A stretch of 64,000 bases of DNA, from the NCBI GenBank assembly GCA_963668245.2, contig CAXXKB010000003.1, forward strand, positions 3,574-67,573, given 5' to 3'. Source of the stretch: Anaerovoracaceae bacterium. Lineage in GTDB: Bacteria > Bacillota > Clostridia > Peptostreptococcales > Anaerovoracaceae. Numbering within the stretch: position 1 is the stretch's first letter; each line of letters begins with the position of its first letter. The position numbers and the translations under genes are program-made. Below, one piece after another: positions 1 through 39,542 of the stretch. The notes beneath the pieces were generated by a model. The model did no database searches, was not told the DNA's origin, and worked only from the letters and a program-made list of their open reading frames with translations.

Positions 1-663
1 TTCGAAGGAAAGAGGATAGGGATCCTTCCATACACCATAGTGCTTTGTAGGTGTGAAAAGAGTAGCCACTTTTGCCCTATCCCTGCTGGTTAAAATAATG
101 ATTTGGTTATACCAGAATAATTTCTCGTGCTCTCGCACATAACGGTCAATCTGCCGGTAAGCTTCCGTTAGTTGCTTTTCAGGTGCTAATTTAGGACTCT
201 TACACTCAATAATTACTAAAGGAAGGCCATTCACAAAAATTAGGATGTCAGGAATGATGATTCCACTTGTGTTGGTGACAGTAAATTGATTCGTTACGAC
301 AAAATCGTTATTCTCTATTTTGTCGTAATCAAAGAGCTTGACGGATTGATTTTTATTCCCAGAACCAACGTCTTGCACAACTGTAATACCTTCCCCAAAT
401 AACCAGTCAAAAATTTGTTTGTTCATATGCCATAAATCTTCTGCTTGCGGGGTAGAAAAACGACGTACTACTTTATCTAGACTATTTTCATTCATCCACG
501 GATTTAATCGCTGTAGACTTTCACGAAAACGATCTTCTAATAGAACAACCGCTTGAGAAGATCGTTCACGATCCAATTCATTTGTGTTTAAATAATTGTA
601 TCCATAGTTTTTTAGCTGTTCAATAAGAGGAATTTCCACGTGTGTTTCTTCGTATCGGTCCAA
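1..663 (-). CDS. hsdR: Type I restriction endonuclease subunit R, N-terminal part (runs off the window start)
   Basis: Manual translation from TTG at 663 (RBS GAGGGGG): DRYEETHVEIPLIEQL...NDFVVTNQFTV...PDILIFVNGLPLVIIECKSP, the HsdR_N PD-x-ExK motif; downstream of hsdS/hsdM. Not in the ORF track. Confidence 0.93.
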   Translation of the reverse strand, partial: MDRYEETHVEIPLIEQLKNYGYNYLNTNELDRERSSQAVVLLEDRFRESLQRLNPWMNENSLDKVVRRFSTPQAEDLWHMNKQIFDWLFGEGITVVQDVGSGNKNQSVKLFDYDKIENNDFVVTNQFTVTNTSGIIIPDILIFVNGLPLVIIECKSPKLAPEKQLTEAYRQIDRYVREHEKLFWYNQIIILTSRDRAKVATLFTPTKHYGVWKDPYPLSFE

Positions 664-969
664 TTAGCTTCCCCCTCTTTCAATTATTAAATAATGCTAA
701 AAGCAAAGACGTCACTTTTTTATCAACATAACTTGTTGCGTGAAATATAATTTCCTTTTGAATAACTTTTTATAATTGAGTTTATCTAAAAAAAGCCCTT
801 AGTAGCGAGCTGATTCCTAGGTTGCCTGCTATTCCTATTTAAATATTCAGAGTGAATAAAAATGAGGCTTAATGCTAAATTTTCTATAGTAATTATTTGG
901 TATCAAGTTGTTCGTAGACTTTTATTGTAGTTTTTGGAAAAGTCTTGTACTGGCTATCCAACATCATAA

Positions 970-3685: not shown

Positions 3686-3836
3686 TGTTTTGTATTCCTC
3701 CTATTGGGTATGAAAATTTTAATAGTTTCATTCTATGACTTAAATATTGAATCACTGTTTATTATTCTATTAATTAATTCATCTCTATTAATTGGGCAGC
3801 TAAAGGGACAGTATTTTTACTTTCTATAGCATCAAA

Positions 3837-5270: not shown

Positions 5271-5336
5271 ATGAAGCCTCCTTTTATATTAACCAATACA
5301 TAGGTATATAGATATAACGTTAAGGGTATTCCTTTT

Positions 5337-7190
5337 TCATTTATGATTTAAAAGTTCCAAAGTACCCTCTAAGCCCATCTTGAAAATTGCTTGCAATTTA
5401 TCTTTTGCTAACTCTTCTTGTAAACTTACAATTTGTATTCTTACTTGTTCCTTTTTATAATTATAGGACTGCATAATTTCGTCTTGTAGGTACTTATCAA
5501 TAAAAGGGATTTTTAGTTCTTTGATTGCCGTAGGAGATAGTGATAATACAGTTTCACCTTTCATTTTTTGTTTAAGCTGAACTTGACCTATCGGGCTATC
5601 TAAATAAAACTTAAGCCAATCTACATTTATAGAATCATTCACGCGGATTAAAACAAAATTTTGAGATACCAATATATTTTTTATATCTTCTTTAATTACA
5701 GCAGTCTTTATATTTTCTCCGCGAGTAGAGATTAATAAATCACCATTTTGAACAAGGTAGTTATCTATTTTAGTGTTTTCTGGTATATTACTTTGATCCA
5801 ACTTTGTAAAATCAATTTCTCCTGCAACCACATCCGAGATTTTGATTATTCGGTATGAGATTTCCCCTTTATCATGCTTACTAGGTAGATTAACTCCTCG
5901 ATTTACAGTAGCAATTTTTTGAATTTCTACGGTTTCTAAAGAATTTAATTTATCAATATCTACGATTACGTCACCCAACTCCTGGTCAGTAATCATTTGT
6001 TTTTCTTTCACATACCTCTCTACGGTGAGGCTACCTTCGATAATTTCATCTTTATTTATAAGTTTTGATTTACCAGGTATTTCGGAATCATTATTGAATA
6101 GATCCAGAATAGCGCTTATATCTTTATTAGTTAAATTTTTTTGTTTACTGTCAGAAACATAATCTTCCGCATTGATCATCATAATCTTATTTTTGCGATT
6201 ATTTCTTTTGTTTTTATTTATAATCAGCATAGCTATGGGAATAGAAGTTGTGGGAAGCAAACCGGAAGAGAGTTTGATTACAGCTTCAAATAAATCTAAT
6301 TCTATAACCCTCTCCCTTATTGTCTGCTCTTTCCCCCCTCTGAATAAAGCACCTAAAGGAACTATGAATATGCCCCTTCCATTTTCTTTTAGAGAATTAA
6401 TCCCATTACTGACAAATGCCCAATCCGCACGTGATTTGGGTACACTTCCAAACATGAATCGGTTATATGGATCTGTTTCGTAAATCTCTTCTGATATACT
6501 CTTCATTCCTATTGGTGCATCGGAATATACAACATCAAATTTTTGAAGACTACCGTCTTCTACATATTTTGGATCCCGTAAAACATCCCCAATTTTTATA
6601 GTAGTTTTTGTAGCACCGGCTAATATAACTCTAATTTGAGCAATTTCACCTGCAAGTGAATATATTTCTTGGCCAAAAATCTTTTGGTTAGGGTTAGTGG
6701 TCAGAACGGAAACGATTGCATTTCCAAATCCACAGGTAGGGTCTAAAAATGTCTCTTCTTTCTGAACTTCTATTATTTTTAATGCTAATTCATTAATGCT
6801 GGAAGGTGTTAAATGTTCACCACCAATTTTCCCTATACTATTCTCCGTGGAATGAAAATAGCTTTCCAGAAATTCGCTAGGAGTTAAATTTTTAAATATT
6901 TCTAGTGTATAGAATTGAAAGTTTTGCAAAACCGGATTGGTCATTAATTTTAAAGACCTATTCAATCTATCGAGTAAAGTAGGAAGGTGAAGGTGTAAAG
7001 CGTCCGCAGCTTCTTGTGTAGCAGCATAGAAATCACTAGGGGTATTATTTCCTGATTGTAAAAGTGTTTGAATTGTATTCGGATTATGAAACTGAACTAA
7101 TGCAATAGAAGAAATTATGGTAATGTAATCACTTGATGGAATTGAGCTACGAAGAGAATCAATAACTCCCCATAATTTTTTTGTATTCAT
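5337..7190 (-). CDS. HsdM-like N6-methyltransferase fold fused to a C-terminal HsdS-type TRD
   Basis: GEHLTP, DPTCGFG (motif I); motif IV position reads SDAPIG rather than NPPF; C-terminal ~190 aa are TRD-like (GDLLISTRG...LKIPF). Confidence 0.8.
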   Translation of the reverse strand: MNTKKLWGVIDSLRSSIPSSDYITIISSIALVQFHNPNTIQTLLQSGNNTPSDFYAATQEAADALHLHLPTLLDRLNRSLKLMTNPVLQNFQFYTLEIFKNLTPSEFLESYFHSTENSIGKIGGEHLTPSSINELALKIIEVQKEETFLDPTCGFGNAIVSVLTTNPNQKIFGQEIYSLAGEIAQIRVILAGATKTTIKIGDVLRDPKYVEDGSLQKFDVVYSDAPIGMKSISEEIYETDPYNRFMFGSVPKSRADWAFVSNGINSLKENGRGIFIVPLGALFRGGKEQTIRERVIELDLFEAVIKLSSGLLPTTSIPIAMLIINKNKRNNRKNKIMMINAEDYVSDSKQKNLTNKDISAILDLFNNDSEIPGKSKLINKDEIIEGSLTVERYVKEKQMITDQELGDVIVDIDKLNSLETVEIQKIATVNRGVNLPSKHDKGEISYRIIKISDVVAGEIDFTKLDQSNIPENTKIDNYLVQNGDLLISTRGENIKTAVIKEDIKNILVSQNFVLIRVNDSINVDWLKFYLDSPIGQVQLKQKMKGETVLSLSPTAIKELKIPFIDKYLQDEIMQSYNYKKEQVRIQIVSLQEELAKDKLQAIFKMGLEGTLELLNHK

Positions 7191-8561: not shown

Positions 8562-9557
8562 TTATTCCCCGACTTGTCCATCCCCGTCTCGGTCATCCAT
8601 ATACGGATATAACCAATGATTACTATAAATTGGCATGGCGTACCCCGCATTTTTCACTTCTTGGATTGTGACTTGACCATTGCCGTTCGTATCTACTGCA
8701 GCTACATCGCCTCCTGTTGTCTGGGTGGGTGCAACGAATGCTGCCGTACCGGAAGTTTCAGAAGGTGAGCTATCCCCTCCCGTTAATCCTTGTGCGGCAT
8801 TATATTCATCCGGGTTAACGTTTTGGAACTCATCAACTACTTGATATCCATTGATCGTATATGTGTACCTATAATGATTCGGAACTTGTGTAGTTGTATC
8901 TGGGTAGGTAATGATAGCCTCAAAATTAGTGGCCCCACCTGCTTGTACGATATTTCGTTCCATATATGCCTGATCCCCATGACGGTTCAGCACACTGTCT
9001 TGTGGCGTAATGTTATAGGCATTGGCCACACCCCCTAAGGAGTCGGCTATGACATGTCCTTCGTCGAGATTTGCGTTCTCTGTGCCCGGAACTTTTGCTT
9101 CGTCATCATAATAGCGTCCTTCAGAATTGACTGGTTCAGTGGCATTATCTTGCAAAATAATTTCTGCTGCAACAACTCGAACCAGTTGACCATATTCATT
9201 TGTATAGGCCCAATATTCCCTGTCACCAAAACCGATATCAACGACAACATTTGCTGCACGATATCCTGATAATTCTCCACCGTACACTTCGATTAATGCA
9301 TAGCCATCATGAGATACAGATGATTGGGGTTCGGCACTTTCAGAATACGCTAAGGAATCGACTGATTCTGAAGGTAATTTCTCAGTTTCTTTACTTTCTT
9401 CCTTATCGGTAGCTACTGAAGCGACTTCAACGCTAGATTCGATCGAACCGGACGCCATTATTTCTTCAGTTACTGCTTCTGTTGGTGTACAAGCGCTGAG
9501 CAACAGCATACTGCTCACAGCACAAAATAACTTTCTTCCTTTTATCATGAGATTCAC
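8562..9557 (-). CDS. Lipoprotein DNA/RNA non-specific endonuclease with C-terminal EF-hand-like motif
   Basis: Lipobox LLSAC; DEGHVIADSLGG...NITPQ...LN (beta-beta-alpha-Me); DTNGNGQVT and DRDGDGQVGE. Confidence 0.8.
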   Translation of the reverse strand: MNLMIKGRKLFCAVSSMLLLSACTPTEAVTEEIMASGSIESSVEVASVATDKEESKETEKLPSESVDSLAYSESAEPQSSVSHDGYALIEVYGGELSGYRAANVVVDIGFGDREYWAYTNEYGQLVRVVAAEIILQDNATEPVNSEGRYYDDEAKVPGTENANLDEGHVIADSLGGVANAYNITPQDSVLNRHGDQAYMERNIVQAGGATNFEAIITYPDTTTQVPNHYRYTYTINGYQVVDEFQNVNPDEYNAAQGLTGGDSSPSETSGTAAFVAPTQTTGGDVAAVDTNGNGQVTIQEVKNAGYAMPIYSNHWLYPYMDDRDGDGQVGE

Positions 9558-14002: not shown

Positions 14003-14569
14003 CTATGACTCAGTACTTATTTCCATTTTCCTTTTATTACGCGTTAAGGTACTCTTGCTGATGCCGGTCATTTTCTCTACCTCTTTGTAGGAATGATTCT
14101 TCAATAGATTCATGGCTAGATTGATTTGTTGCTGATTAAATTTCTTCGGTCGCCCTTCCCGGAAGTCGGGTTTCTGTCTGGCCAGTTCTTTTCCCTCTTG
14201 CGTACGCTCCACAATCAGATCCCGTTCAAAATCCGCAAAAGCGCTGAAGATGGTGAAGATCAATCTTCCGGTGGACGTGTTTTCAATAATGCCTAGATTC
14301 AGCACATTGATCCGCACGCCCTTCTCGAATAAGAGTTTGATCGTGTTTAATGCGTCTTGCGTGCTCCGAGCGAAGCGGTCCAACTTCGTCACAACCAGCG
14401 TATCCCCTGTCTGGATTTCCTGAAGGAGTTTTTGGAACTCGGGACGATCACTTTTTGTTCCGGTAATTTTTTCGAAGTAAACCCGGTCGCAGCGTTCCTC
14501 CTCGAGTTGACGCAGCTGTCCTTCCAGATCTTGTTGGCGAGTACTCACCCGTGCGTAACCATATTTCAT
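14003..14569 (-). CDS. Serine recombinase (resolvase)
   Basis: [13 protein letters not shown]...[15 protein letters not shown]; C-terminal HTH. Confidence 0.95.
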
Positions 14570-22665: not shown

Positions 22666-23274
22666 TTAAGATAACTCTTCTAATTCCCCTTTTATCCGAT
22701 AAACGGTGTCTCTAGTCACATCTGTCTCCTCTGGGATATTCTTGATAGGCTCGCTCTTCTTCAATTTGCTGACGATTACGTTGTATGTCATGCGGTCACG
22801 CAGGTTTTTGGCATTCGCCGCATACTTCATCGGACGGCCCTTGTAGTGGCCCTTCTTCTTAGCAATCTCAATCCCCTGTCTCTGCTTACGAATAATTTCT
22901 TCCCGTTCATTTTGGGCAATCCAGGACAGTAACTGTACAACCATGTTCCGGATCAGTTTCTGCAGATTAGGATTTTCTAGGTCATGGTTTAGAATTGGCA
23001 AATTCAATACGATTAAACCAATTTCCTTCCGATCAAGCCGCTGCACCATCTGAACGATATCATCATAGTTCCGACCGAGTCAATCCAATGATTCCACAAT
23101 CAAGACATCTTTCTCTCAATAATCCCAAAGCTTTCTGTAATTCTTCCCAATCTGACATACTCTTTCCGGATATTTTCTCTTCAAAGATTTTTTTGTCCCT
23201 GCTTTTTTGAGTGCCTCAATCTGTCGGTCCAGATTCTGGTCTGTGGTAGACACTCGCGCATATTCAATTTTCAT
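22666..23274 (-). pseudogene. Frameshifted serine resolvase
   Basis: MKIEYARVSTTDQNLDRQ at 23274, then frameshifts and stops; the C-terminal part is ORF 22666-23049. Confidence 0.85.
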
Positions 23275-23464
23275 CTGTTTTTTCCTTTTCCCGCACTTGA
23301 TTTATTCGACACTTATAATCTGCATTAAGAATCCAATAAAATCAACATTTTACACGTGACGGTTTTAGGTACACTCTAAACCAGCATTTTTTGTAAGTAT
23401 TAAATTTGATAATAAGGATCGTAGTATTCACCAAAAAAATTTAGATGTAGAATCAAAATCACTC

Positions 23465-23516
23465 AAACCAAAGTAGGCCCGTTACGCAAGTTATTGTAAC
23501 GGGCCTACTTTGGTTT
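23465..23516. terminator. 21-bp perfect inverted repeat (terminator of the array/gene transcript)
   Basis: AAACCAAAGTAGGCCCGTTAC-10 nt-GTAACGGGCCTACTTTGGTTT. Confidence 0.7.
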
Positions 23517-23549
23517 AGTGGCATAATTTAATGCATTTATCTTACTAAC

Positions 23550-23585
23550 TGAATTGTCCCCTTACAAATCGGGGTAGTCTTTAAT
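23550..23585 (-). CRISPR. Detached degenerate CRISPR repeat (trailer-type)
   Basis: 23556-23585 is identical to 30 of the 36 repeat nt; only the 6 nt at the transcript 3' end diverge. Confidence 0.9.
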
Positions 23586-24526
23586 TATGGAATAATCCAA
23601 CCAGCTCCTAAATCTTGGTTATTTGTGCCGTTTCCAGTACCTACAGTATAAGTAGAACCATCTGCGCTTTGTTCTATCCATGTATCATTTCGCACTCCAT
23701 CTTCGGTTGTAGCAGACCATCCGTACTCTATAGTTCCGCTAGACGAATAAGTTGGCGTGCTTGAACTAGAATTAGAAGAATAACTGCTAGAACTGTCTGG
23801 TTCAACATAAGTATATCCCGTATCGTAATTAGAATCGTCGTAATTATTTGACGAACTGTAATTTGCAGAATCGCTATTAGACTCTTGGATGTATTGTTGT
23901 TCAGCTACACTTGCCGCTTGAGCTACGACTGCAGCTTGTGCTTCAACTGCAACTTGAGCTTCTGCTTCTACTTTTGCCTGTGCTTCGTCTAATTGTTTAA
24001 TTTTTTCTTCATATCGTTTTAAAATTTTATTTGTTTTATTATTAAATTGTTCTTTTTCATCACCAAAGTAAACTAGACCTTCTAAACTCAAAACTTTTTC
24101 TTTTAATGTGCTTAAAATATTAATTTTTTCGTTTAGGGAGTCTTTTGTTTCAATTTCCAGATCCTTTGTTGTATTGTCTAACAAAACCTTAATGTTTTCA
24201 TTTTTAAATAATTCTTTTGACTTAGTAATATAACTTTCATAGATTTTGATAATTTTTTCGTCTTTTTCATTTCCCTTTTTGTATCGACTGTATTCTGAAA
24301 CCATGGATTTAAAATAATCTAATCTTTTAGCTTCATCTTTTTCATTATTAAATGAAGAATAATCACTTTGAATATCTTTACTTTCAGAAGCAATATTTTC
24401 ATTATAGATTCTTTCTTCTTCTTTATTTTCCATTGCAATTGCTGTAAAACTACTTGAGGCCAACAACAGTACTGTTCCTAAAAGTAGTAAAATTTTATTT
24501 TTCTTTAACAAGGGCTCCACCTCCAT
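23585..24526 (-). CDS. Secreted or membrane-anchored coiled-coil, Ser-rich hypothetical protein located between CRISPR repeats
   Basis: Signal peptide (KKNKILLLLGTVLLLASSSFTAIA), coiled coil, AQA repeats, Ser/Tyr-rich tail; likely TTG start after GGAGGTG; upstream TATAAT. Confidence 0.8.
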   Translation of the reverse strand: MEVEPLLKKNKILLLLGTVLLLASSSFTAIAMENKEEERIYNENIASESKDIQSDYSSFNNEKDEAKRLDYFKSMVSEYSRYKKGNEKDEKIIKIYESYITKSKELFKNENIKVLLDNTTKDLEIETKDSLNEKINILSTLKEKVLSLEGLVYFGDEKEQFNNKTNKILKRYEEKIKQLDEAQAKVEAEAQVAVEAQAAVVAQAASVAEQQYIQESNSDSANYSSSNNYDDSNYDTGYTYVEPDSSSSYSSNSSSSTPTYSSSGTIEYGWSATTEDGVRNDTWIEQSADGSTYTVGTGNGTNNQDLGAGWIIP

Positions 24527-24596
24527 ATTTTTTGTTATTAATTTAACATTATATTGTTGATAAAAAGGGAATGATATTTGTTATATTCCTCCCTTA

Positions 24597-25294
24597 GTTA
24601 CCGTCCCCTTACAAATCGGGGTAGTCTTTAATATGATGGAGGCTTCTCGATCGCCAATCATCGTTACCGTCCCCTTACAAATCGGGGTAGTCTTTAATTT
24701 AAATTCCTTGATTTCTCCGGTTGAGAGGGTTACCGTCCCCTTACAAATCGGGGTAGTCTTTAATTTCAATTATTCGACTTTGACTACGAATTCGGTTACC
24801 GTCCCCTTACAAATCGGGGTAGTCTTTAATAATTACGTAGAAGGTACGCTGAGGCTTTATCGTTACCGTCCCCTTACAAATCGGGGTAGTCTTTAATCAC
24901 GTTTCAAATGGTGACGCCCATGCGTTTGTTACCGTCCCCTTACAAATCGGGGTAGTCTTTAATCGCGTCGAGGACTATATAGGCAAAGGCACCGTTACCG
25001 TCCCCTTACAAATCGGGGTAGTCTTTAATCTTTATCCAAATACGCAGATTGTCCTAGCAGTTACCGTCCCCTTACAAATCGGGGTAGTCTTTAATGAATA
25101 GAAGTATATGGGCTCTGCATGGCTTGTTACCGTCCCCTTACAAATCGGGGTAGTCTTTAATGATGGATCTTTGCGATCTACATCAAAACGGGTTACCGTC
25201 CCCTTACAAATCGGGGTAGTCTTTAATCCAAGCCGTCAAAAAAGAGCATTGGAAAGCGGTTACCGTCCCCTTACAAATCGGGGTAGTCTTTAAT
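24597..25294 (-). CRISPR. CRISPR array, type VI-A (Cas13a)-like: 11 identical 36-nt repeats, 10 spacers of 30-31 nt
   Basis: Repeats start at 24597, 24663, 24729, 24795, 24862, 24928, 24994, 25060, 25126, 25192, 25259. The minus-strand repeat ATTAAAGACTACCCCGATTTGTAAGGGGACGGTAAC has the GAC-x-ACCCC...GGGGAC...AAC layout of Cas13a repeats. Confidence 0.96.
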
Positions 25295-25420
25295 TATTCA
25301 GCCGAAAAAAATTGCTAAATCAACTGATTGAGATGATTTTATTGTCTAAAAATCTGCCCATGCATAAGTAATACTTCAATAAGTTGGCAGTTTCTTGGAC
25401 AATAGGTTTATCGAAAGCAA
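25295..25420 (-). promoter_or_regulatory. Putative CRISPR leader
   Basis: AT-rich and non-coding, on the side opposite the degenerate repeat. Confidence 0.5.
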
Positions 25421-25642
25421 TTAGTATTACTATTATAACATTCAACCTATGCAGCTGGACATTCATATATTATATTCAAAGAGATTCCCATAAGCTTATC
25501 ATACATATTAAATTTTGTGGCCCTCTAGTATCAAGGTACGATTCTATTATTCCAGATCAGATGAAATGAAGTGGAAGGAGTAGCGTCTTTACAGCGTTTC
25601 CCCTTCTATTTCACTATAACTCAAGACTACTTATACATCGGT

Positions 25643-25843
25643 CTATTCATCATCTGGAACCTCGCATATGATCATTCGTGCATACATCTCAAATATTGCA
25701 GCCTCGACAATTTCTGCGGGTGTTTCAAAAAATTCATACTCCAAAGCCAGATGCGTTTGCAACGCTTCAATCATCTTCGTGTTACTGCCGTCTAATTTGA
25801 GGAACATATTGGATTCTAATGCGTCATTCGACATACTGATCAC
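25643..25843 (-). CDS. Small protein, possibly ribbon-helix-helix (copy 1)
   Basis: RBS present; near-identical paralog at 37233-37493. Confidence 0.55.
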   Translation of the reverse strand: MISMSNDALESNMFLKLDGSNTKMIEALQTHLALEYEFFETPAEIVEAAIFEMYARMIICEVPDDE

Positions 25844-25961
25844 CTTCCCTTTCTACCTAAAATATCCGCAGAATCTTCCGGGTGATTTATTTATGAACAG
25901 AAAAGTTTATAAATATTCCCTGCCTTTTTTTTAATATCCACGCGTGTTCGCTTTACAAAAA

Positions 25962-25975
25962 CAAACATACGTTCT
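25962..25975 (+). promoter_or_regulatory. LexA (Cheo) box overlapping the yolD-like promoter
   Basis: CAAACATACGTTCT between TTTACA and TATAAT. Confidence 0.6.
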
Positions 25976-26037
25976 TATAATAGGAGTATAGACTTTGTAA
26001 GCTGTCCTAATTCATGACATGAAAGAATGAGTGGAAG

Positions 26038-26592
26038 GTGAATATCATGCTAAAAGAAACAAGAAATCGAACAGAAAAGGTATTTGAAGCGTACAATGAC
26101 TACCACGATAGAGGTATGGTGAAGTGGCTGACCGCGTTCGCAATGGAAGAACTAGCACAGTCTATTTCTATCGGAAAAGAGGAGGCTATGAAGGATATTC
26201 CAATCCTGCCTCAGATGAGCTCTTTCGAAATCGATACAGCTTTAGCGGAGTCCATTCAAAAAAATCGTCTCGTATCGATACAATTGAACCAAAAGGACCG
26301 CTTCGGGCGACAATCAGAGTCTATCGTAGGGCAATTCAGAGGCTATCTCGCGGACAACAAGCTTTTGATTGATACGCAATGGATCTTACTGGAGAGCATT
26401 CGGAACGTACACATTTTGTATGAGCAGAAATGGTCTGAGATCCACGTTTTTACAGCAGATACAAAAGAAAAAAACGAGCTGAATTCCACGCGAGAGTTTC
26501 GACATAGTGTTTGTGTTGAAAACCAAGAAGCTTTTGACACTGCTATCACTTGGGTGGAAGACTTCAATCAGTGCACAGAATGGTTTGAATAA
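26038..26592 (+). CDS. YolD-like protein (copy 1)
   Basis: YHDRGMVKW motif; PQMS..EI...L; SOS box upstream. Confidence 0.75.
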   Translation: MNIMLKETRNRTEKVFEAYNDYHDRGMVKWLTAFAMEELAQSISIGKEEAMKDIPILPQMSSFEIDTALAESIQKNRLVSIQLNQKDRFGRQSESIVGQFRGYLADNKLLIDTQWILLESIRNVHILYEQKWSEIHVFTADTKEKNELNSTREFRHSVCVENQEAFDTAITWVEDFNQCTEWFE

Positions 26593-26747
26593 CCCATACA
26601 TGTAGGCCATTGAGAAAAACCTAAAAATTTACCGTACAAGGACGGCCGTACGTAAAAATCAGATTTTTAAGTGCTTCTATCCATTTAAAACTATTTCCTC
26701 TCCCATTAAGAGAGCGTATACTTTTAATCAAGGGGGGATCGCATTCA

Positions 26748-26984
26748 TTGGAACATTTCGCGCAGGTAGTTGAACAGATTGATGATAAAATAGCTGCCCT
26801 TAAATTGGATATCAAGGAAGCAGAATTGCACCTACATACGCAGCTGAACGCCGGTGTACCCGAAGAGCACTTATCTGATTATTATGCATTGCTGGAGACA
26901 AATGAAGGAAAGCTTAGTGGACTGAACGAAGCACTAAGTATCCTTCAAACCGCATGGCTGAACTATACAGAGAGGGCGCTTTAA
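26748..26984 (+). CDS. Hypothetical coiled-coil protein (copy 1)
   Basis: Paralog at 38399-38635. Confidence 0.6.
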   Translation: MEHFAQVVEQIDDKIAALKLDIKEAELHLHTQLNAGVPEEHLSDYYALLETNEGKLSGLNEALSILQTAWLNYTERAL

Positions 26985-27097
26985 AGCTCACGGGTCATCA
27001 TGGCTGGAGACGTATCATGAATTGGTTGAATGGTTATATTGAAGGGCTCATACTCATTGATATTTCTGTATCATTTCCATTTTATTTGGATATTGAA

Positions 27098-27805
27098 TCA
27101 ACTTTTCTTTTGATAATAATGGTCACGGCTTGCATCTTTGACATTGACCGGTACGCGGTTATAGACTGCTCCTAAGACATGAGCGTTCACCCGCTCTAAG
27201 GCTTCGGAGGCTTTCAAAGTATCCATCTTGGTCGAAACCCCGTGCTGGACAACAACGATGGTTCCATCCGCACGCCCAGCCACGATCTGCGCATCTGCAA
27301 AACCCAAAAGGGGCGGCGTATCATAGATAACAAGGTCGAATTGATCCTCAAATTCCTGTTCCAGATGGATCATCCGTCTACTGGAAAGTAATTCCGCTGG
27401 GTTTGGTGGCGTAGGGCCACCCGTCAAGACCGACAAATCAGCCAGTCTCGTGTCTTGCACGTAATCTTGAACGACACCTGTCGGATTGTTCAACAAGTCC
27501 GTCAGGCCATGGATATTGGCTAATTTAAAATTCTCATGGACAGTCGGTCGTCTGAAATCACAGTCTGCCAACAAGACACGCATTCCTTGTTGGGCGATTG
27601 TGATGGCCAAATTGATGGCGACGGTTGACTTGCCGACGTTATTGCTGGCTGAAGTAATCGCAAGCGAACGCAGTTGTTGGTCCACCATTGAAAAATGGAT
27701 GTTCGTCCGCAGTACACGGAACTGTTCCGAGATGGCAGCAGACGGCAACGCCATGGTGATTGCAGCGCTCTGCTGAAATGGTTGATTATTTTTTCTTCTG
27801 AACAT
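27098..27805 (-). CDS. CpsD/CapB-family tyrosine-protein kinase (orphan)
   Basis: Probable start MFRRK at 27805; SEQFRVLRTNI, VGKST, DCDFRRP, DTPP. Confidence 0.88.
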   Translation of the reverse strand: MFRRKNNQPFQQSAAITMALPSAAISEQFRVLRTNIHFSMVDQQLRSLAITSASNNVGKSTVAINLAITIAQQGMRVLLADCDFRRPTVHENFKLANIHGLTDLLNNPTGVVQDYVQDTRLADLSVLTGGPTPPNPAELLSSRRMIHLEQEFEDQFDLVIYDTPPLLGFADAQIVAGRADGTIVVVQHGVSTKMDTLKASEALERVNAHVLGAVYNRVPVNVKDASRDHYYQKKS

Positions 27806-28343
27806 GACCTTAGCCTCCGATTCGATCTTTTGCCGTTTCCAGCTCATGTACTGGGTGATCGCTGTGAATTCTTCTTTTTTTATCTCTGATATCGCCGATG
27901 CGGTTGCCGGCTTTGGATTACTCGATGCCCAAATACAGAGCTTTTTCGGACACTTCCACCAGCCGCTTCGATGCATGATTGCACAAAGTCATTGCTCTCC
28001 ATCGTAGTCAAAACCGGCTGATGAAACTGCGCAATTTTTTAGTTCTTTACGGACTGCTATGTATTTTTCTATTACTTCCCGCTGCATGAGAGCTTTTGCA
28101 ATTTTTGGTTTTTTGCCATAATATCGTTCTCCCTATGACAAATACAATCATTATTTTGTAAAACATAATAATTACGATTTTCAAACGAAAATTTATCATA
28201 CTGTAGATGGATTGTCAACATAAACAAACCTGGAATTACATTCATGTGCGGGAAATTGTGAAATAAAATGTATAAGAAAATAAATAAACCTGCTACACAT
28301 TGACCTTACGCGCCTTCAGATAGGAGTCTATGCAATGCTAACC

Positions 28344-28427: not shown

Positions 28428-28484
28428 CGGTACAAACGGAACGGATAGGCTTTCAGCATAGAAACCAGAAGAGCAGGGTTCACC

Positions 28485-28796
28485 CTATCCTTTATTCCCT
28501 CTCATAGTCCCCACCACTTGGTTTAAATGCAACAGGACTTTCTCCAGAAATGCCTGCTCGGACAAAACACAAACGGAATGCCCTTCTTGCTGCAAAGCTT
28601 CCACCTTCTGCATTTTCAGACTCCTCGGATCTTCTTGAAAGAGATTGGTATTCGCCTTTCCTACAACCAAGATTGTGGTATCTTTGGTAACCGCTGCTTG
28701 GGGTTTTCCTCCTAATGCAGTGACTAATGCCTGCGCTTGTTTCCGCGACAACATATCCAATTTACCCGTAAATACAATTTTTTCGCCCAGAAACAT
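28485..28796 (-). CDS. Stand-alone BRCT-domain protein (copy 1)
   Basis: GEKIVFTGKL..LSRKQAQALVTALGG...VTKDTTILVVG...LSEQAF. Confidence 0.85.
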   Translation of the reverse strand: MFLGEKIVFTGKLDMLSRKQAQALVTALGGKPQAAVTKDTTILVVGKANTNLFQEDPRSLKMQKVEALQQEGHSVCVLSEQAFLEKVLLHLNQVVGTMRGNKG

Positions 28797-32065: not shown

Positions 32066-34474
32066 TTAGTACATTTCATCTTTTACATTAAATGATTGGC
32101 CTTTTAGGTTGTATTTCAAAAATTTGTATAATATATAATTTTCCTTGTCAGTCTCGTGTGTAGATAAAATAATCTGTTTGTTTGGAAAATCGTTCCTAAG
32201 CACTTCTATAAATGATGCAATATTAATATCATCCATAGTTTGTACTGGATCATCAATTAGAATAAACCCTATATCATCTGTTTGTTCTGAAATGTATCGC
32301 TTATTCATTGCAAACAAAAAGGATAGAACAAACCCTGATAATTGCCCTGAGCTGAATGTATTGAGTATGTCATGTTTTGCATCACCATTCGAAACAAATC
32401 TCATTTCATCTTTATTAATAAATACACCTAACCCATTTTGATAATCCTGCAATATTTTCCCTGTGTATATTAGAAGAGGTACACGCAACTTTTTTAGAAC
32501 TAAATTTTTATATTCCTCTATTGCAATATTATAGAAGTTCTTTAGTTCATTAAAATTATTTCTGATTATTTCAAGTTTCTCCAATTTGATGATTAATGTC
32601 TTCACATCATTTTTTATCTGATCAATCTCATTATTTTTCAGAAGACTATTTTGATATCTTACAAACATAATTTTATTATCTGTGGCAGTTTTGTCTTTTA
32701 AATTTGATTGTTCAATTGATAATAGGTCAGCATTTCCCTTAAATATATTGTCGTAATTATAGAGTTTTAAATTCTCTGTGAAGTTCTTGTTTTCATAATC
32801 AGAAAGCTTCGACTCGATAATTCTTTTCAGTTCAATAATTTTGCTTATCTCATCTAGTTCTCTCCACGAATTAATATCTCCAACAAATCCATGGATTTTA
32901 GAAATATCATTCATTTTCTTTTCTGACTTAAGAAGCACGGAATATTCACTTGCAATGGTACGAATTTGTTCAATTTCGTTGTCATCTTTTCGCTTAAACA
33001 ATTTTTCTATTGAATCAACTATTGAGTTAGCATAATTAGATAGCATCGCTTTCTTGTCTTTTATTTCTACAGAAATATTATCTTGTGAACTTTTCAACTG
33101 AGTACTTAAAGAACTATATGCTGCTTCCAATAGCTCAGGATTGTCATAAGGGCTATTGCAATAAGGACACTGATTTGAATTTGCATTATTTCCTCTAACT
33201 GAATGTAGCTTTTCTCTCGCTTGTATCAGTTCATTTGTCTTCTTTTGATTCTCTCCAAGTTGGGAATTTAGTACTTTTATTTCGTTAACAAGATTATCTA
33301 CATCACCAATTACTACCGCCTCAGGGATTATTCCTATTTCTTGCAATGAAATCATATCTTCTTTTTTATATTTTGAAATATCCAATTCACTGCGGAAGAA
33401 ATCACTGTATTTAAAAACATCCAGCACTCGGTTCAATTTAGCAATTTCATCTTCAACCTGTTTATGATTAAACTTATTGCCATTCATAAATTCATTGAAT
33501 TTTGTGTAACTTAAGATTGCTTCATTATCATTTGAGCACATCATTATTTCATTATTTTTTAGTAACTTCCTGTAATCAGCTAAATCTTGATATAGATTAT
33601 AGATGCCATTTATTTCATCAATATATGCTGACAGTTGGTTCTCTGAAATGTCCTTTAACACAAACTTCTCAAGATCCCATTTTTTCACTACACAATTTTG
33701 AGGATAAACAAGTAACGGAGTATAATTTGTTTCTTTATATGCTCCTCCAGCATCATCTAACTTCATTTTCAAATTAGATATCTTAATATCTAACTCACCT
33801 TTTGTAGCTTTTATTGCATCGTTAATTAAAACTCCATTTTTTGCCTTAGAGGCTCCTGTAAGGCTTTTTTCTATTTTATCAATCTTCGCTTGTATAGTTT
33901 CTGTTTGAAGAAGTTTAGTCATGCTGTCTTTTCTACTAGAAATACTATTTTTTAGAAAATGAACGGATTCCGCTTGAGAAACGTAATAGTAGATATTAAA
34001 ATGCTCTTTTATGTAGTTTAAATTCTCAAATTCTGAAATGTCTCCCTTCCAATCTATATTACCATTTAAAAATTCATCAAATTTATTTGTATCAACTGGT
34101 CCTTCAATACAAGTGAATTTAATAGCTGTATCAAAGGTTAGCTTTGTAAGACTATTATCTATCTCTGCAATAATAGTTATCTTTTCATGTCTTTCATTTA
34201 TCAATGTTAATATCAAATATCCGCATTCATCTGATGTATTTAACAGAATATTTTTACCAAGATTGGTTCTTCCATCTTCAATATCTGAATTTAAACGTGT
34301 TATTCTTTTAGTAAAAATCAACTCAACGGCATCGAAAAATGTTGTTTTCCCAAATCCATTAGGTCCTGATAAAATAGTAGGATTTGTATCATGAACAAAA
34401 TAAAATTCATAGAATTTCTTATAGTCAAAACACTTAAAATTGCGTACTTTTAGACTTTCAATTTTATAACTCAC
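32066..34474 (-). CDS. lmuB: SMC/Rad50-like ABC ATPase of a Lamassu/ABC-3C system
   Basis: GPNGFGKT, CPYC zinc hook, FSSGQ signature, ILIDDPVQTMD. Confidence 0.85.
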   Translation of the reverse strand: MSYKIESLKVRNFKCFDYKKFYEFYFVHDTNPTILSGPNGFGKTTFFDAVELIFTKRITRLNSDIEDGRTNLGKNILLNTSDECGYLILTLINERHEKITIIAEIDNSLTKLTFDTAIKFTCIEGPVDTNKFDEFLNGNIDWKGDISEFENLNYIKEHFNIYYYVSQAESVHFLKNSISSRKDSMTKLLQTETIQAKIDKIEKSLTGASKAKNGVLINDAIKATKGELDIKISNLKMKLDDAGGAYKETNYTPLLVYPQNCVVKKWDLEKFVLKDISENQLSAYIDEINGIYNLYQDLADYRKLLKNNEIMMCSNDNEAILSYTKFNEFMNGNKFNHKQVEDEIAKLNRVLDVFKYSDFFRSELDISKYKKEDMISLQEIGIIPEAVVIGDVDNLVNEIKVLNSQLGENQKKTNELIQAREKLHSVRGNNANSNQCPYCNSPYDNPELLEAAYSSLSTQLKSSQDNISVEIKDKKAMLSNYANSIVDSIEKLFKRKDDNEIEQIRTIASEYSVLLKSEKKMNDISKIHGFVGDINSWRELDEISKIIELKRIIESKLSDYENKNFTENLKLYNYDNIFKGNADLLSIEQSNLKDKTATDNKIMFVRYQNSLLKNNEIDQIKNDVKTLIIKLEKLEIIRNNFNELKNFYNIAIEEYKNLVLKKLRVPLLIYTGKILQDYQNGLGVFINKDEMRFVSNGDAKHDILNTFSSGQLSGFVLSFLFAMNKRYISEQTDDIGFILIDDPVQTMDDINIASFIEVLRNDFPNKQIILSTHETDKENYILYKFLKYNLKGQSFNVKDEMY

Positions 34475-35271
34475 TATTTTACCCCTTTCAACATTTTTTT
34501 GATTGCTTTTTCTAGATTATCCTCATCAATTTTAAAATCATCTTCTAGTAGAAGTATCTCCTCAATGTTAGTTTCATTATTATTTAAAATTTGATGGTAC
34601 TTGATTTGCTTATCTATTAAAGCCCGTTCAACCTGTTTTTCTATAGGCTCAGGTGCTAATTCAGTCTTAAACTTATACTGTAAAAATGGAAGTTTAGCAA
34701 ACATACGAATTACCAGGCCATATGTGCTATCTAATTCTTTACCTTCAACCAACTTGAAATAACTATCCTCATTATCTACAATTTGACATAGTGCATCTAC
34801 TAATGTTCTGTCACTAAACTGCGATAGAGAATTTTCCAATTGCTCAATTTGTTTTTGCGTATAAGGCAAAACATATCTTTTGAAATAGTTGGGTGATTCT
34901 TCTATTGAGTAAACAGCATTTCTATAGTTATTCAAATTTTCTATATTTTCAAATAATAACAGATAAATTGCCGAGGTATTCTTATCTATCTGACTAGCTT
35001 CTTTTGCGTTACCAAATGATTCTATTATTTGTTGCTTAAACGAAATATTGTCCGAATCTACGCTTTTTGAGTATTTATTTTCAAGCTGTTCTAATGCATT
35101 AATTACTTCTACCTCATCGTTTTCAAATCCCCTACAATCTATGGCGTTAATAATGAAATAATTAGCGATTTCTGTGTGTTCATGCTTATAGAATTCTAAA
35201 TTTATTCTGCCAATATCGGTTAGTTTAACGTAATTGTATGTTCTAAATATTCTATCAATCAAGTCATTCAT
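34474..35271 (-). CDS. lmuC: ABC-3C middle component (LmuC-like)
   Basis: Overlaps both neighbours; IEESPNYFKRYVLPY motif. Confidence 0.7.
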   Translation of the reverse strand: MNDLIDRIFRTYNYVKLTDIGRINLEFYKHEHTEIANYFIINAIDCRGFENDEVEVINALEQLENKYSKSVDSDNISFKQQIIESFGNAKEASQIDKNTSAIYLLLFENIENLNNYRNAVYSIEESPNYFKRYVLPYTQKQIEQLENSLSQFSDRTLVDALCQIVDNEDSYFKLVEGKELDSTYGLVIRMFAKLPFLQYKFKTELAPEPIEKQVERALIDKQIKYHQILNNNETNIEEILLLEDDFKIDEDNLEKAIKKMLKGVK

Positions 35272-36841
35272 TATCTATCAGTTCCCCCTCTGCTATATCT
35301 TTACTTATTATTCTCATGACTTTTGATTTGTTGTAATTAATTTTTTGTCGTTCAGCAGAATCCGAAGTTATATCTACAATTTCATTTAATTCATTAGTCC
35401 CCATAACATTGAAGTTATTTTGATTGTATCTATAGTCAGGCTTATTCAATCTATCAGTAATTAAGACATCACTTTCGTAAATAAAAAATTTATCTGCATT
35501 ATTCATGCTTAATTCTTTATTCAATTGGGCTTCAAAATCTTCAATATACTCATTTTCATCCAAAGTTAGTCGATAAATCTCTTCATTTTTTTCAGCTAAA
35601 ATAACATTTGAATCATAATATTTCAAACATTCTATTTTCTTCAAAAATCTAATAAATAAATTGTTAACGACAGTATCTCTTGGCAAATTATTCTTTGGAG
35701 TTCTTAGGAGCAGCTTATATAAAAAGTCTTTTTTGTCTTCATAGCTTTTATTGCAAATCTCTATCATCTGACGATATAAATTACACTCATCAAAAGTGGT
35801 GCAACTCTCACAATCACTACATACACAATCAGTTCGGATACTACTAGGATATTTTTTATATGTATCCTTTATCAACTGAAGCAACTCATAATACTGATAT
35901 TCCGTTGTATTACTTTCAGCCTTATGATCTTTAATTATCAGATCAAGTATTTTGGAAAACTCCACTTTACATGAATTTTTTTTACTGCAGGTATTATGAG
36001 CACTAATCACATCTTTTGAAAAAATGACGATCTTATCATAAATAAACTGATAATACGTTTGATTATAGTATATGCTCCCCTGAGGATTAATCTTCTTTAA
36101 TATCTTCTCAATAATTTCGCATGAATTTTGAATGACACTTGCAGGTGTTGTAAATTGTTCACCATATACATTCCATATATCTGAATCAGACTTACCATTC
36201 AACAACCCTTTATATAGAGATAATTTATTCTTTGCGCATGCAACGGCTTTAATCACATTCTCTTTTTCATTATTGCCATCACAAATTGAACATAATATTT
36301 TGTATAAAGAACCTTTCGGCGTATTGTTGTTAATTTTACTAATTAGGATATACTTTTCTTCTGTTTGCTTATACAAAGCATCGCTTCTTTTTATTTTTCC
36401 CCCAAGTGTGGGGCCTAATGGTGTTATCTCATCACTAAATTCTTTTTCTGTTTTAACTTCCTTGTTTAGATCAGATAACAGACAGTCAATACTCTGTACA
36501 GTTTTCTCTATGAAATCAAAAGGAATTGTAGCTTCGGGAACAATATGAAAATATGCATTTTCAGCTGCATACTGTAAGGCAGATATAATAAAGCATGTTT
36601 TATCATCATTGTCTAAACTGACATTACCTGCTTTAACTTGATGTAAACTTATGTAATTATCCCCTTTTATTATAGAAAAATCCTCTTCACCTTCGATTCC
36701 TAATTTATATAAAATGATTTCTTCCTGATTACCTAATTCAATAACTTGCCATATATGATTTAAAGCTATATATAAAGCTATATGCCGTTGATACTCAAAC
36801 CCTTCCCAAGCTGGAATGGCACTAATAGGTGCGATTATCAT
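35264..36841 (-). CDS. lmuA: Lamassu/ABC-3C effector with N-terminal Cap4-like PD-(D/E)xK nuclease
   Basis: SAIPAWEGFEYQ, EGEEDF, LHQVK; first gene of the three-gene operon. Confidence 0.75.
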   Translation of the reverse strand: MIIAPISAIPAWEGFEYQRHIALYIALNHIWQVIELGNQEEIILYKLGIEGEEDFSIIKGDNYISLHQVKAGNVSLDNDDKTCFIISALQYAAENAYFHIVPEATIPFDFIEKTVQSIDCLLSDLNKEVKTEKEFSDEITPLGPTLGGKIKRSDALYKQTEEKYILISKINNNTPKGSLYKILCSICDGNNEKENVIKAVACAKNKLSLYKGLLNGKSDSDIWNVYGEQFTTPASVIQNSCEIIEKILKKINPQGSIYYNQTYYQFIYDKIVIFSKDVISAHNTCSKKNSCKVEFSKILDLIIKDHKAESNTTEYQYYELLQLIKDTYKKYPSSIRTDCVCSDCESCTTFDECNLYRQMIEICNKSYEDKKDFLYKLLLRTPKNNLPRDTVVNNLFIRFLKKIECLKYYDSNVILAEKNEEIYRLTLDENEYIEDFEAQLNKELSMNNADKFFIYESDVLITDRLNKPDYRYNQNNFNVMGTNELNEIVDITSDSAERQKINYNKSKVMRIISKDIAEGELIDNE

Positions 36842-37232: not shown

Positions 37233-37493
37233 TCAACACCTGCTGTGTAAAAATAAGTCCGCTTCAGATGGAGTGAGGTCTGAATTTGGCTGGTTTGATA
37301 GAGTATGGCACCGCGCTCCGTTATTTCGTGCATACATCTCAAAAATTGCAGATTCGACAATATCCGCGGGGGTTTCAAAAAATTCATACTCCAAAGCTAA
37401 GTGCGTTTGCAACGCTTCAATCATCTTAGTAGTGCTCCCATCTAATTTGAGAAACATACTGGATTCTAATGCGTCATTCGACATACCGATCAC
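37233..37493 (-). CDS. Small protein, possibly RHH (copy 2)
   Basis: Paralog of 25643-25843 with a different C-terminus. Confidence 0.55.
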   Translation of the reverse strand: MIGMSNDALESSMFLKLDGSTTKMIEALQTHLALEYEFFETPADIVESAIFEMYARNNGARCHTLSNQPNSDLTPSEADLFLHSRC

Positions 37494-37613
37494 CTTCCCT
37501 TTCTACCTAAAATATCCGTAGAATCTTCCAGATGATTGATTTATGAACAGAAAATTTTAGAAAAATTCCCTGCCTTTCTTTTTAAATATCCACGCGTGTT
37601 CGCTTTACAAGAA

Positions 37614-37627
37614 CAAACATGTGTTCG
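37614..37627 (+). promoter_or_regulatory. LexA box in the yolD-like promoter (copy 2)
   Basis: CAAACATGTGTTCG directly before TATAAT. Confidence 0.65.
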
Positions 37628-37688
37628 TATAATGGGGTATAGAATCTGTAAGCAGTCCTAATTCATGACATGAAAGAATGAGTGGAAG

Positions 37689-38243
37689 GTGAATATCATG
37701 CTAAAAGAACCAAGAAAGCGAACAGAGAAGGTATTTGAAGAGTACAATGACTACCACGATAGGGGTATGGTAAAGTGGCTGACCGCATTCGCTATGGAGG
37801 AATTAGCAAAGTCTATTTCGATAGGAAAAGAGGAGGCGATGAAGGATATTCCCATCCTGCCTCAGATGAGCCCTTTAGAAATCGATATAGCTTTAGCGGA
37901 ATCCATTCAAAAAAACCGTCTCGTATCGATACAATTGAACCAAAAAGATCGTTTCGGGCGTCAAACTGAGTCGATAGTAGGTCATTTCACAGGCTACCTC
38001 ACGGATAATAAGCTTTTGATTGATAATGAATGGATTTTAGCGGAGAGTATTCGAAACGTGCGCATTTTGCATGATGAGAAATGGTCCAAGACCCACGTCT
38101 TTTCAGCAGATACAAAAGAAAATAACGGACTGAATTCCACGCGAAAGTTTCCAAATACTGTTTGTATTGAAGACCAAGAAGCTTTTGACACTGATATCAC
38201 CTGGGTAGAAGACTTCAATCAATGCACAGAATGGTTTGAGTAA
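37689..38243 (+). CDS. YolD-like protein (copy 2)
   Basis: Close paralog of 26038-26592. Confidence 0.75.
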   Translation: MNIMLKEPRKRTEKVFEEYNDYHDRGMVKWLTAFAMEELAKSISIGKEEAMKDIPILPQMSPLEIDIALAESIQKNRLVSIQLNQKDRFGRQTESIVGHFTGYLTDNKLLIDNEWILAESIRNVRILHDEKWSKTHVFSADTKENNGLNSTRKFPNTVCIEDQEAFDTDITWVEDFNQCTEWFE

Positions 38244-38398
38244 CCCCTACATGTAGGCCCTTGAGAAAAACCTAAAATGTCGCGTACAAAGATGGCCGCA
38301 TGTAAAAAATCATGTTCTTGAGTGCTTTTATCCATTTAAAACTATTTCCTCTCACACTAAGAAAGCGTATACTTTTAATCAAGGGGGGATAGCATTCA

Positions 38399-38635
38399 TT
38401 GGAACATTTCGCGCAAGTAATTGAACAGATTGATTATAAAATAGCTACCGTTAAATTTGATATCAAGGAAACAGAGCTACACCTACATAAGCAGTTGAAT
38501 GCCGGTGTACCCGAAGAGCACTTGTCTGATTATTATTCGTTACTGGATATAAACGAAGGTATACTCAGTGGACTGAACGAAGCACTAAGTATCCTTCAAA
38601 CCGCATGGCTGAACTATACAGAGAGGGAGCTTTAA
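38399..38635 (+). CDS. Hypothetical coiled-coil protein (copy 2)
   Basis: Paralog of 26748-26984. Confidence 0.6.
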   Translation: MEHFAQVIEQIDYKIATVKFDIKETELHLHKQLNAGVPEEHLSDYYSLLDINEGILSGLNEALSILQTAWLNYTEREL

Positions 38636-38654
38636 AGCTCACGGGTAATCATGA

Positions 38655-38849
38655 ATGGAGACGTATCATGAACTGGAAAAGGAACTAGCCGAGGTATGTT
38701 TAATGAATGAGTCCGATCAAGACTCGATTTCAATCTACCTAGATCGTTTTAATGCACTTGCCGCCACTGGTAACTTGTCGGATAAGCAGTTTGATCGATT
38801 GAATGGCTATATTGAAGAACTTATTCTCAATTGGGGAGACGTAGATTAG
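38655..38849 (+). CDS. Acidic hypothetical protein (internally deleted in copy 1)
   Basis: 64 aa; copy 1 keeps only its start and its LNGYIE end near 27005-27056. Confidence 0.55.
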   Translation: METYHELEKELAEVCLMNESDQDSISIYLDRFNALAATGNLSDKQFDRLNGYIEELILNWGDVD

Positions 38850-39180: not shown

Positions 39181-39230
39181 TCAACTACCTCTTTTTTTAG
39201 ATTTTCAAAGACAGAAGAGCAGGGTTCACC

Positions 39231-39542
39231 CTATCCTTTATTCCCTCTCATAATCCCCACCACTTGGTTTAAGTGCAATAGGACTTTTTCCAGAAACGCT
39301 TGCTCGGATAAAACACAAACAGAGTGGCCTTCTTGCTGCAAAGCTTCCACTTTCTGCATCTTCAGACTTCGAGGATCTTCTTGGAAGAGATTGGTGTTCG
39401 CCTTTCCGACAACAAGGATGGTTGTGTCCTTCGTAACCGCTGCTTGCGGTTTTCCTCCTAATGCAGTGACTAGTGCCTGCGCTTGTTTCCGGGATAACGT
39501 ATCCAATTTACCCGTAAATACAAATTTCTCTCCACGAAACAT
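39231..39542 (-). CDS. Stand-alone BRCT-domain protein (copy 2)
   Basis: Near-identical to 28485-28796. Confidence 0.85.
   Translation of the reverse strand: MFRGEKFVFTGKLDTLSRKQAQALVTALGGKPQAAVTKDTTILVVGKANTNLFQEDPRSLKMQKVEALQQEGHSVCVLSEQAFLEKVLLHLNQVVGIMRGNKG

Follow-up and report, generated by a model that had tools for sequence, protein, structure and literature searches.

A Cas13a-type CRISPR array without cas genes on a conjugative plasmid, with a gene in one spacer slot and possible use in trans

Layout of the array

A CRISPR (short palindromic repeats, clustered and regularly interspaced) array of the Cas13a type lies on the minus strand of a 64,000-nt stretch of DNA, positions 3,574 to 67,573 of contig CAXXKB010000003.1 (assembly GCA_963668245.2, filed as an Anaerovoracaceae bacterium). 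This whole stretch is called the window below, and coordinates refer to it. The array consists of eleven repeats of 36 nt, 100% identical to one another, with ten different spacers, and is followed by a 1011-nt insert and a twelfth repeat (Table 1). The original prediction, made from the letters of the window, had described eleven perfect repeats and ten unique spacers, and a count of identical 36-nt units at 24597-25294 gave the same numbers; it had missed the twelfth repeat and the gene that occupies the spacer slot before it.

The repeat unit reads GTTACCGTCCCCTTACAAATCGGGGTAGTCTTTAAT on the window strand and ATTAAAGACTACCCCGATTTGTAAGGGGACGGTAAC on the minus strand, which is the sense of the CRISPR RNA (crRNA). 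It recurs with a period of 66-67 nt, with spacers of 30-31 nt, and is predicted to fold into a hairpin with a CCCC/GGGG stem and a 9-nt loop. When 2 mismatches are allowed, a core pattern of 24 nt matches the window 12 times, where 0.00 matches are expected in shuffled sequences. The leader-to-trailer orientation follows from the match of a Cas13a-repeat model, described below, to the minus strand, and the newest spacer is the one at 25228-25258. The leader contains a weak sigma-70-like site at 25534-25505, whose promoter likeness is not above chance.

At the trailer end, repeat 12 keeps the first 30 nt of the unit (crRNA sense) intact and reads AATTCA in place of GGTAAC over its degenerate last 6 nt. 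It is the array's own terminal repeat, displaced from repeat 11 by the insert, and not a solitary unit outside the array. The minus strand of 24520-24640, around the terminator-like hairpin at the start of the insert, folds with an energy of -26.9 kcal/mol (z = -3.0); past this hairpin, still within 24527-24596, come a TATAAT-like box and then a ribosome-binding site, GGAGGTGGAG. The strong hairpin past repeat 12 has a fold of -56 kcal/mol (z = -7.0), and an analogous hairpin follows the terminal repeat in two related arrays, on metagenome contigs L125 and L127.

Table 1. Features of the array and its flanks, from the leader to the trailer side
Feature	Coordinates	Strand	Remarks
Leader	25295..25674	-	unique AT-rich sequence upstream of the first repeat (crRNA sense); identical in contigs L001 and L002
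CRISPR array	24597..25294	-	11 repeats and 10 spacers; each repeat scores 28.8 bits with the cas13a-repeat model
Terminator-like hairpin and UUUUU	within 24527..24596	-	begins 3 nt past repeat 11, at the start of the 1011-nt insert
313-aa open reading frame	23585..24526	-	occupies the spacer slot between repeats 11 and 12
Repeat 12 (terminal)	23550..23585	-	19.8 bits with the cas13a-repeat model; same copy in L001 and L002
Strong terminator hairpin, then U-rich tract	23460..23520	-	stem of about 25 bp; about 30 nt past the terminal repeat

Type of the repeat

Cas13a loci for comparison were gathered with the Listeria seeligeri Cas13a as query, a sequence checked against PDB 6vrc/8zty (2481 bits, residues 1-1120). 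The protein search recovered 10 Cas13a clusters, and six loci were examined. In five of these (L139, L140, L142, L143 and L145) the last cas gene is followed by an array that has the orientation of cas13a, the gene order in L140 being cas13a-cas1-cas2. Their repeats are 36 nt long and share the form ...GA(C/U)UA-CCC(C)-loop-GGG(G)AC-..AAC, and the longer arrays (L140, L142 and L143) have spacers of about 30 nt. The direct repeat of LwaCas13a has the same form and stands 5' of the spacer (PMC10864651).

A covariance model was built from 8 repeats of 6 cas13a-adjacent arrays, namely that of LwaCas13a and the five above, with the window repeats kept out of it, and both strands of the window (128 kb) were searched with filters off. 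All eleven repeats match over their full length with E values of about 1e-4 each, and repeat 12 matches with the lower score given in Table 1. The matches are confined to the minus strand, and nothing else falls below E = 1. The outermost stem pair (columns 12:28) covaries as C:G or U:A among the cas13a-linked repeats and is kept in the window repeat. The sizes of repeat and spacer and the layout GAC-UA-CCCC...GGGG-AC...AAC also agree with the cas13a-linked loci.

No Rfam family, CRISPR-DR families included, matches in 23000-26200, and no anti-repeat resembling a trans-activating crRNA (tracrRNA) is found on the plasmid. The exact repeat has no match in the genome contig collection or in IMG/VR. 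Judged by its sequence, the window repeat is thus of the Cas13a kind, as had been predicted, yet it is no close copy of any cas13a-linked repeat retrieved.

The plasmid and its lack of cas genes

Of a replicon of about 70.3 kb the window covers 64.0 kb, and a 70,316-nt metagenome contig, ERZ21862665:ctg8322c, supplied the rest. The segment L130 matches window 13685-1 at 100%, continues for 6,318 nt and then matches window 64000-62507 at 100%. L136, also from the 70,316-nt contig, joins the window ends in the same way, with overall end identities of 100% and 99.99%. From this closure of the ends on one contig, and from the contig name ending in 'c', we infer that the plasmid is circular. The 6,318 nt missing from the window hold the rest of hsdR, a YgjP-like gene, an open reading frame (ORF) of 262 aa, and genes for Fic, a DUF5388 protein and ParA.

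The whole replicon was searched by tblastn with four Cas13a proteins (one of them from L. seeligeri), one Cas1 and one Cas2, and gave only chance matches, with E values of at least 0.28. Hidden Markov model (HMM) scans with Pfam, PADLOC and NCBIfam found no cas family among 32 ORFs, which were the ten largest and the neighbours of the array; the scans covered ORFs of about 120 aa and above, small genes such as cas2 being covered by tblastn alone. The largest ORF of the window, 907 aa, encodes a coupling protein of a type IV secretion system (T4SS), and the other largest ORFs belong to conjugation or restriction-modification. The original prediction had placed an intact array without cas genes on a conjugative plasmid, and these statements hold for the window. 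It had also pointed out that a cas13a gene just outside the window would make this an ordinary split locus. In the remaining 6,318 nt the tblastn search gave no similarity to Cas13a, Cas1 or Cas2, and this refuting condition does not hold.

The conjugation and replication genes comprise a MobL relaxase, a TraG/VirD4-type coupling protein (T4SS-DNA_transf), a VirB4-like ATPase, a pLS20_p028-family protein, RepA_N with iterons, and ArdC. By this gene content the replicon is a pLS20-like conjugative plasmid. Its host group is best explained as a low-GC Firmicute from wastewater, the nearest matches being Carnobacteriaceae or Enterococcaceae relatives. The array sits in the accessory and defence part of the plasmid, near a type I restriction-modification system, a methyltransferase-specificity fusion, PDC-S01 and an ABC-3C/Lamassu-like trio.

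Several other features of the plasmid were recorded. The ABC-3C/Lamassu-like module at 32066-36841 consists of three genes (LmuB-like SMC ATPase, MComp1 and CTD1) and has a GC content of 29%. The type I restriction-modification genes, with hsdR crossing the window start, extend over window 1-7190 and L130:13686-15947 and lie beside the methyltransferase-specificity fusion (617 aa) and a 477-aa protein without a family match; five metagenome contigs of other samples (L131-L135) carry this block with 99.5-99.9% conservation. Tandem iterons of 17-24 nt at 62200-62490, about 150-430 nt upstream of the RepA_N gene, are likely the replication origin. Between 26000 and 29000 the GC content rises to as much as 45%, against about 35% nearby, and a polysaccharide tyrosine-autokinase-like gene (27098-27976) stands there without the remaining capsule operon; this patch looks like a foreign fragment.

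Duplicated sequence lies next to the array. The leader edge meets a duplicated module, homology to the second window copy starting at 25675; the module, which comprises genes of 181/184 aa and 78 aa, is present at 25675-27025 and 37325-38676 with 88.7% identity. A BRCT-domain gene is likewise duplicated (28466-28796 and 39212-39542, 89.4% identity). In community runs the depth of the segment 25840-26030, upstream of the 181-aa gene, is 10-20 times that of the sequence around it, and variant joints skip 71-112 nt. This element is variable and present in multiple copies, and it contains the site most like a promoter in this region, TTTACA-18-TATAAT at 25952-25981. Directly downstream of the array terminator, a serine recombinase (resolvase) gene is split into two ORFs (22666-23274).

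Spacer turnover and protospacers

On two contigs, L001 and L002, the leader, the trailer and the 1011-nt insert do not differ from those of the window. Their array has 4 spacers, and a single one is common with the ten of the window, TTAAATTCC...GAGAGG. The earlier suggestion of recent activity, which rested on the perfect repeats, is borne out by this difference in spacer content between contigs with identical flanks and by perfect protospacers in co-resident DNA. At least four window spacers (24633-62, 25096-125, 25162-91 and 25228-58) have perfect matches with flanks that are not array sequence, of which 30 nt are known per side, in contigs of the same wastewater runs. For 25162-91 and 25228-58, the only spacers with depths listed, the target contigs have about 2-30 times the depth of the plasmid. 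No spacer matches the plasmid itself.

The target of the newest spacer, read on the window plus strand, translates to VQSEDEAKAFIQAVKKEHWKATHNCSAYLIG and matches the Pfam family UPF0029 (YigZ/IMPACT) above the family cut-off. Since the sense strand of this UPF0029-like ORF is the window plus strand, the crRNA would be antisense to the target mRNA. Related arrays have an informative target as well. Spacer 7 of L125 and spacer 11 of L128 overlap without being identical. On an IMG/VR contig (L141:6195-6214) both fall on a capsid-like gene, at its ribosome-binding site and start codon, again in the orientation that gives an antisense crRNA. Two different spacers on one site of L141 point to independent acquisitions from related phages. 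L141 is a small podovirus-like contig.

A gene in a spacer slot

The 1011-nt insert fills exactly one spacer slot, from repeat 11 to repeat 12, and no partial spacer is left. The stop codon of its 313-aa ORF runs one base into repeat 12. The encoded protein has a signal peptide, a coiled-coil half, a stretch rich in Ser, Asn and Tyr, and a small C-terminal domain. No family of Pfam, PHROG, PADLOC or NCBIfam matches it. Its N-terminal half shares 41% identity with a hypothetical protein encoded on the Carnobacterium sp. 17-4 plasmid pCAR50 and has weak similarity to proteins of Enterococcus faecium megaplasmids.

The exact 313-aa protein is encoded on 4 contigs. Of these, L001 and L002 include the repeats on both sides, and the two short contigs, L003 and L004, show the core of the upstream one. 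Independent assemblies bear out the insert: L001, L002 and contigs of 1074 nt from runs X2 and X4 all cover repeat 12, the gene and repeat 11. A 313-aa gene at the start of contig L131 is not the insert gene and corresponds to window 8562-9557. Wastewater libraries of the RNA type yielded contigs of low depth on the gene, one of which crosses repeat 12 to the foot of the terminator, while the flanks are uncovered; these contigs hint weakly at transcription of the gene.

The repeat family elsewhere

The repeat core was found on five metagenome contigs of the Joint Genome Institute (JGI), in addition to the contigs found through the 313-aa protein, giving at least 6 distinct contig contexts in the databases searched. 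It never stands beside a cas gene, and no cas gene was called anywhere on a contig with the repeat core. A protein shared near the arrays of the family, which might be a new effector, was looked for, and none was seen beyond a resolvase. The window has, besides the split gene beside the array, a second and intact resolvase (14003-14569) with 89% DNA identity to the one beside the L125/L127 array. The array region has no match in PLSDB or in the phage collections, the distant search mode included.

L125 has 21 repeats, with many variant positions outside the stem, and a 450-nt insert (L125:1279-1728) made of the end of a truncated ORF and a gene for a 92-aa membrane protein. In L128 the insert is 768 nt (L128:441-1208), contains a 151-aa lipoprotein gene and ends at a degenerate repeat. 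The small membrane-protein gene of L125 recurs in L128 (1841-1997) directly after another degenerate repeat, with different breakpoints. L129 has a mini-array of two repeats behind phage-like helix-turn-helix and HNH genes. The three repeat-bounded inserts of the window, L125 and L128 are all co-oriented with the array and leave no partial spacer, a number (n=3) too small to be meaningful statistically.

Use of the array in trans and alternative explanations

The favoured explanation, to which we give a probability of about one half, is that this orphan VI-A array is used and refilled in trans and serves as a portable crRNA memory. Since no cas gene is present on the plasmid, the array probably depends on the Cas13a and Cas1-Cas2 of its host. 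It would be transcribed on the minus strand from the leader, and each repeat would fold as the CCCC/GGGG hairpin, a 5' handle such as Cas13a enzymes bind. The transcript would be cut into crRNAs, each with a repeat-derived handle of about 28-30 nt ending in ...GGGGACGGUAAC, by a Cas13a whose gene lies elsewhere in the cell, either chromosomal or on a different replicon. The resulting Cas13a-crRNA complex would act on transcripts of phages, plasmids or other origin, Cas1-Cas2 supplied in trans would add spacers at the leader end, and the plasmid would in this way carry immune memory between Cas13a-bearing hosts.

A living array of this sort is suggested by the perfect repeats, the conserved leader and terminal layout, the spacer turnover, the protospacers in the same communities, and the occurrence of Cas13a and adaptation loci in such communities. 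As to the last point, the cas13a-cas1-cas2 locus L140, whose repeat matches that of the window at 24/36 positions, comes from metagenome ERZ22666027; so does L132, which matches 8.0 kb of the restriction-modification region of the plasmid at 99.9%. That a type VI array may draw on adaptation genes in trans is, moreover, an established idea (PMC8092290). Another contig, L144 (ERZ28634977 scaffold_4253; 8.6 kb, 24% GC), has cas13a-cas1 beside a ParA gene and hicA. It is unrelated in sequence to the window, and is possibly a plasmid-borne Cas13a system.

A number of observations weigh against use in trans. The six Cas13a loci examined include none that is cognate, their repeats matching at most 25/36 positions or no array being present on the contig, and the plain identity of the window repeat to the cas13a-linked repeats obtained is 23-25/36. 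The 3' flank of the handle is ACGGUAAC, not ACUAAAAC or ACUACAAC as in the cas13a-linked repeats. The plasmid is known from metagenomes alone, and all runs that contain it are community samples. RNA-type runs gave only the low-depth contigs on the 313-aa gene. The targets add further points. Around the protospacer of 25162-91 the only open frame is on the opposite strand, and at that of 25096-125 a RepB_C-like match, weak with E 0.0014 and short of the Pfam cut-off, likewise lies on the opposite strand, so that the strand evidence for RNA targeting, read from these sequences, is mixed. The UPF0029 family hit by the newest spacer is presumably of a chromosomal, housekeeping type, and such a target would also fit neutral, unselected uptake. 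A set of 51 concatenated sequences (47 spacers and 4 protospacer flanks) has no match in sequenced phages or PLSDB, and an exact core scan of IMG/VR with six window spacers has none either.

Several of these points would suit a neutral passenger, a stranded VI-A remnant whose working leader is still fed by a compatible Cas1-Cas2 and whose crRNAs serve no effector and bring no benefit. There is no effector on the replicon, and none of the examined Cas13a loci is cognate; a chromosome-type gene as the source of the newest spacer and mixed protospacer orientation are what one would expect where selection for RNA targeting is absent, and the related arrays L125 and L128, with many degenerate repeats and foreign inserts, look decayed. 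The window array, on the other hand, has eleven identical repeats and is kept with identical flanks in independent samples, its layout of terminal repeat and terminator is conserved across otherwise different contigs, and spacers against the start codon of a phage capsid gene were gained twice independently in the related arrays. The passenger is somewhat unlikely. Spacer turnover speaks against a decoy, in which the repeat hairpins would titrate the host Cas13a and shield the plasmid from Cas13a-triggered dormancy. A decoy needs no spacers, yet ten unique ones of canonical length are present, with perfect protospacers. A term search of PMC10651486, which documents for other CRISPR types that mobile elements carry repeat mimics inhibiting Cas proteins, gave no mention of VI-A or Cas13. 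In favour of a decoy stand these documented mimics; the plasmid lacks an effector of its own; and the handle-defective repeat 12 and the hairpin 'spacer' after repeat 11 would yield non-productive RNAs. Because the turnover is real, titration, which the original prediction had offered as an alternative, is the less likely reading, and a quite improbable one.

The inserts raise the further idea of a platform for recombination or gene capture, with the repeats as homology or integration sites through which spacers and cargo are exchanged with other arrays, including those of the host, and with the slot genes as selected cargo. The window, L125 and L128 inserts fit it, each occupying one slot cleanly; the only spacer common to the window and L001 is internal, which simple polar addition does not explain; and recombination between plasmid and host arrays has been suggested (PMC9071438). 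But three co-oriented inserts are not statistically meaningful. That of L125 opens inside a truncated ORF and resembles a random fragment more than a cassette, that of L128 stops at a degenerate repeat, and no recombinase is specifically tied to the arrays. This explanation appears improbable, if marginally less so than the decoy. Finally, the repeat might be misclassified and belong to another CRISPR type such as II-A, for which its length of 36 nt and the 30-nt spacers would by themselves be equally suitable, and the 23-25/36 identity to known Cas13a repeats leaves room for this. Such an error is very unlikely: the Cas13a-repeat model matches each copy, on the expected strand only, the covarying 12:28 stem pair is retained, the plasmid has no anti-repeat or tracrRNA-like complement, and no Rfam CRISPR-DR family matches.

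Use in trans may also be extended from the window to the repeat family as a whole. The family could represent a type VI-A lineage without cas genes whose arrays are confined to mobile elements, are refilled and used in trans, and take kilobase-sized DNA into their slots, perhaps through integration of over-long fragments by Cas1-Cas2, thus doubling as a site of gene capture and expression. This broader proposal is tentative and, as it stands, rather doubtful. The slot-exact gene in any case raises the question of how kilobase-sized DNA enters a CRISPR array.

Once it meets a matching transcript, Cas13a degrades RNA broadly and arrests the cell, which goes beyond cutting the invader. A conjugative plasmid that carries only guides could therefore reprogram the Cas13a response in each Cas13a-bearing host that it enters. 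Under use in trans the possible targets would be phages, rival plasmids and even chromosomal transcripts.

Comparison with known systems

The window array resembles canonical VI-A loci, such as those of Leptotrichia wadei and Listeria seeligeri and the loci L140 and L143, in its 36-nt repeats and spacers of about 30 nt, in the position of the repeat 5' of the spacer, and in the short G/C hairpin (CCCC...GGGG) with a GAC(U)A 5' flank and a ...AAC 3' end. The degenerate repeat at its trailer end has a counterpart in L143. In the canonical loci, however, the array is close to the cas genes, starting about 0.04-0.4 kb from the last of them in L139, L140, L142, L143 and L145, whereas the window replicon has no cas13a, cas1 or cas2. 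It also differs from them in the flank of the handle, in its location on a conjugative plasmid and in the 1-kb gene in a spacer slot.

Several orphan arrays depend on cas genes encoded elsewhere, among them Enterococcus faecalis CRISPR2, the Listeria monocytogenes RliB-CRISPR and Escherichia coli CRISPR4. The window array is like them in having no adjacent cas genes and in being maintained across samples. Those arrays are of type I or II, while the effector here would be an RNA-guided RNase that causes dormancy. A survey of 2022 described 207 orphan arrays on plasmids and proposed their use in trans, and type VI was the only CRISPR type without a plasmid representative (PMC9071438), with which a review of 2024 agrees. 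The window array would fill this type VI gap, and it offers a concrete case for the use of Cas13a and adaptation genes in trans.

For other CRISPR types, viruses and plasmids are known to carry mini-arrays and solitary repeats (PMC10651486). With these and with RNA anti-CRISPRs the window array shares host-type repeats on a mobile element without cas genes, and L129 is itself a mini-array of two repeats. Unlike solitary repeat units, the window array has ten spacers, turnover and a full leader, and only repeat 12 resembles such a unit. For the gain of spacers, PMC8092290 describes a type VI-B array of Flavobacterium columnare that acquires them through a type II-C adaptation module. The window array is similar as a type VI array that has no cas1-cas2 of its own and still gains spacers; in F. 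columnare the effector and adaptation genes are known and lie on the same chromosome, whereas the window array is on a plasmid. The window array thus joins a known class, the orphan arrays on mobile elements, within which it is unusual in being of type VI-A and in having a gene placed exactly in a spacer slot.

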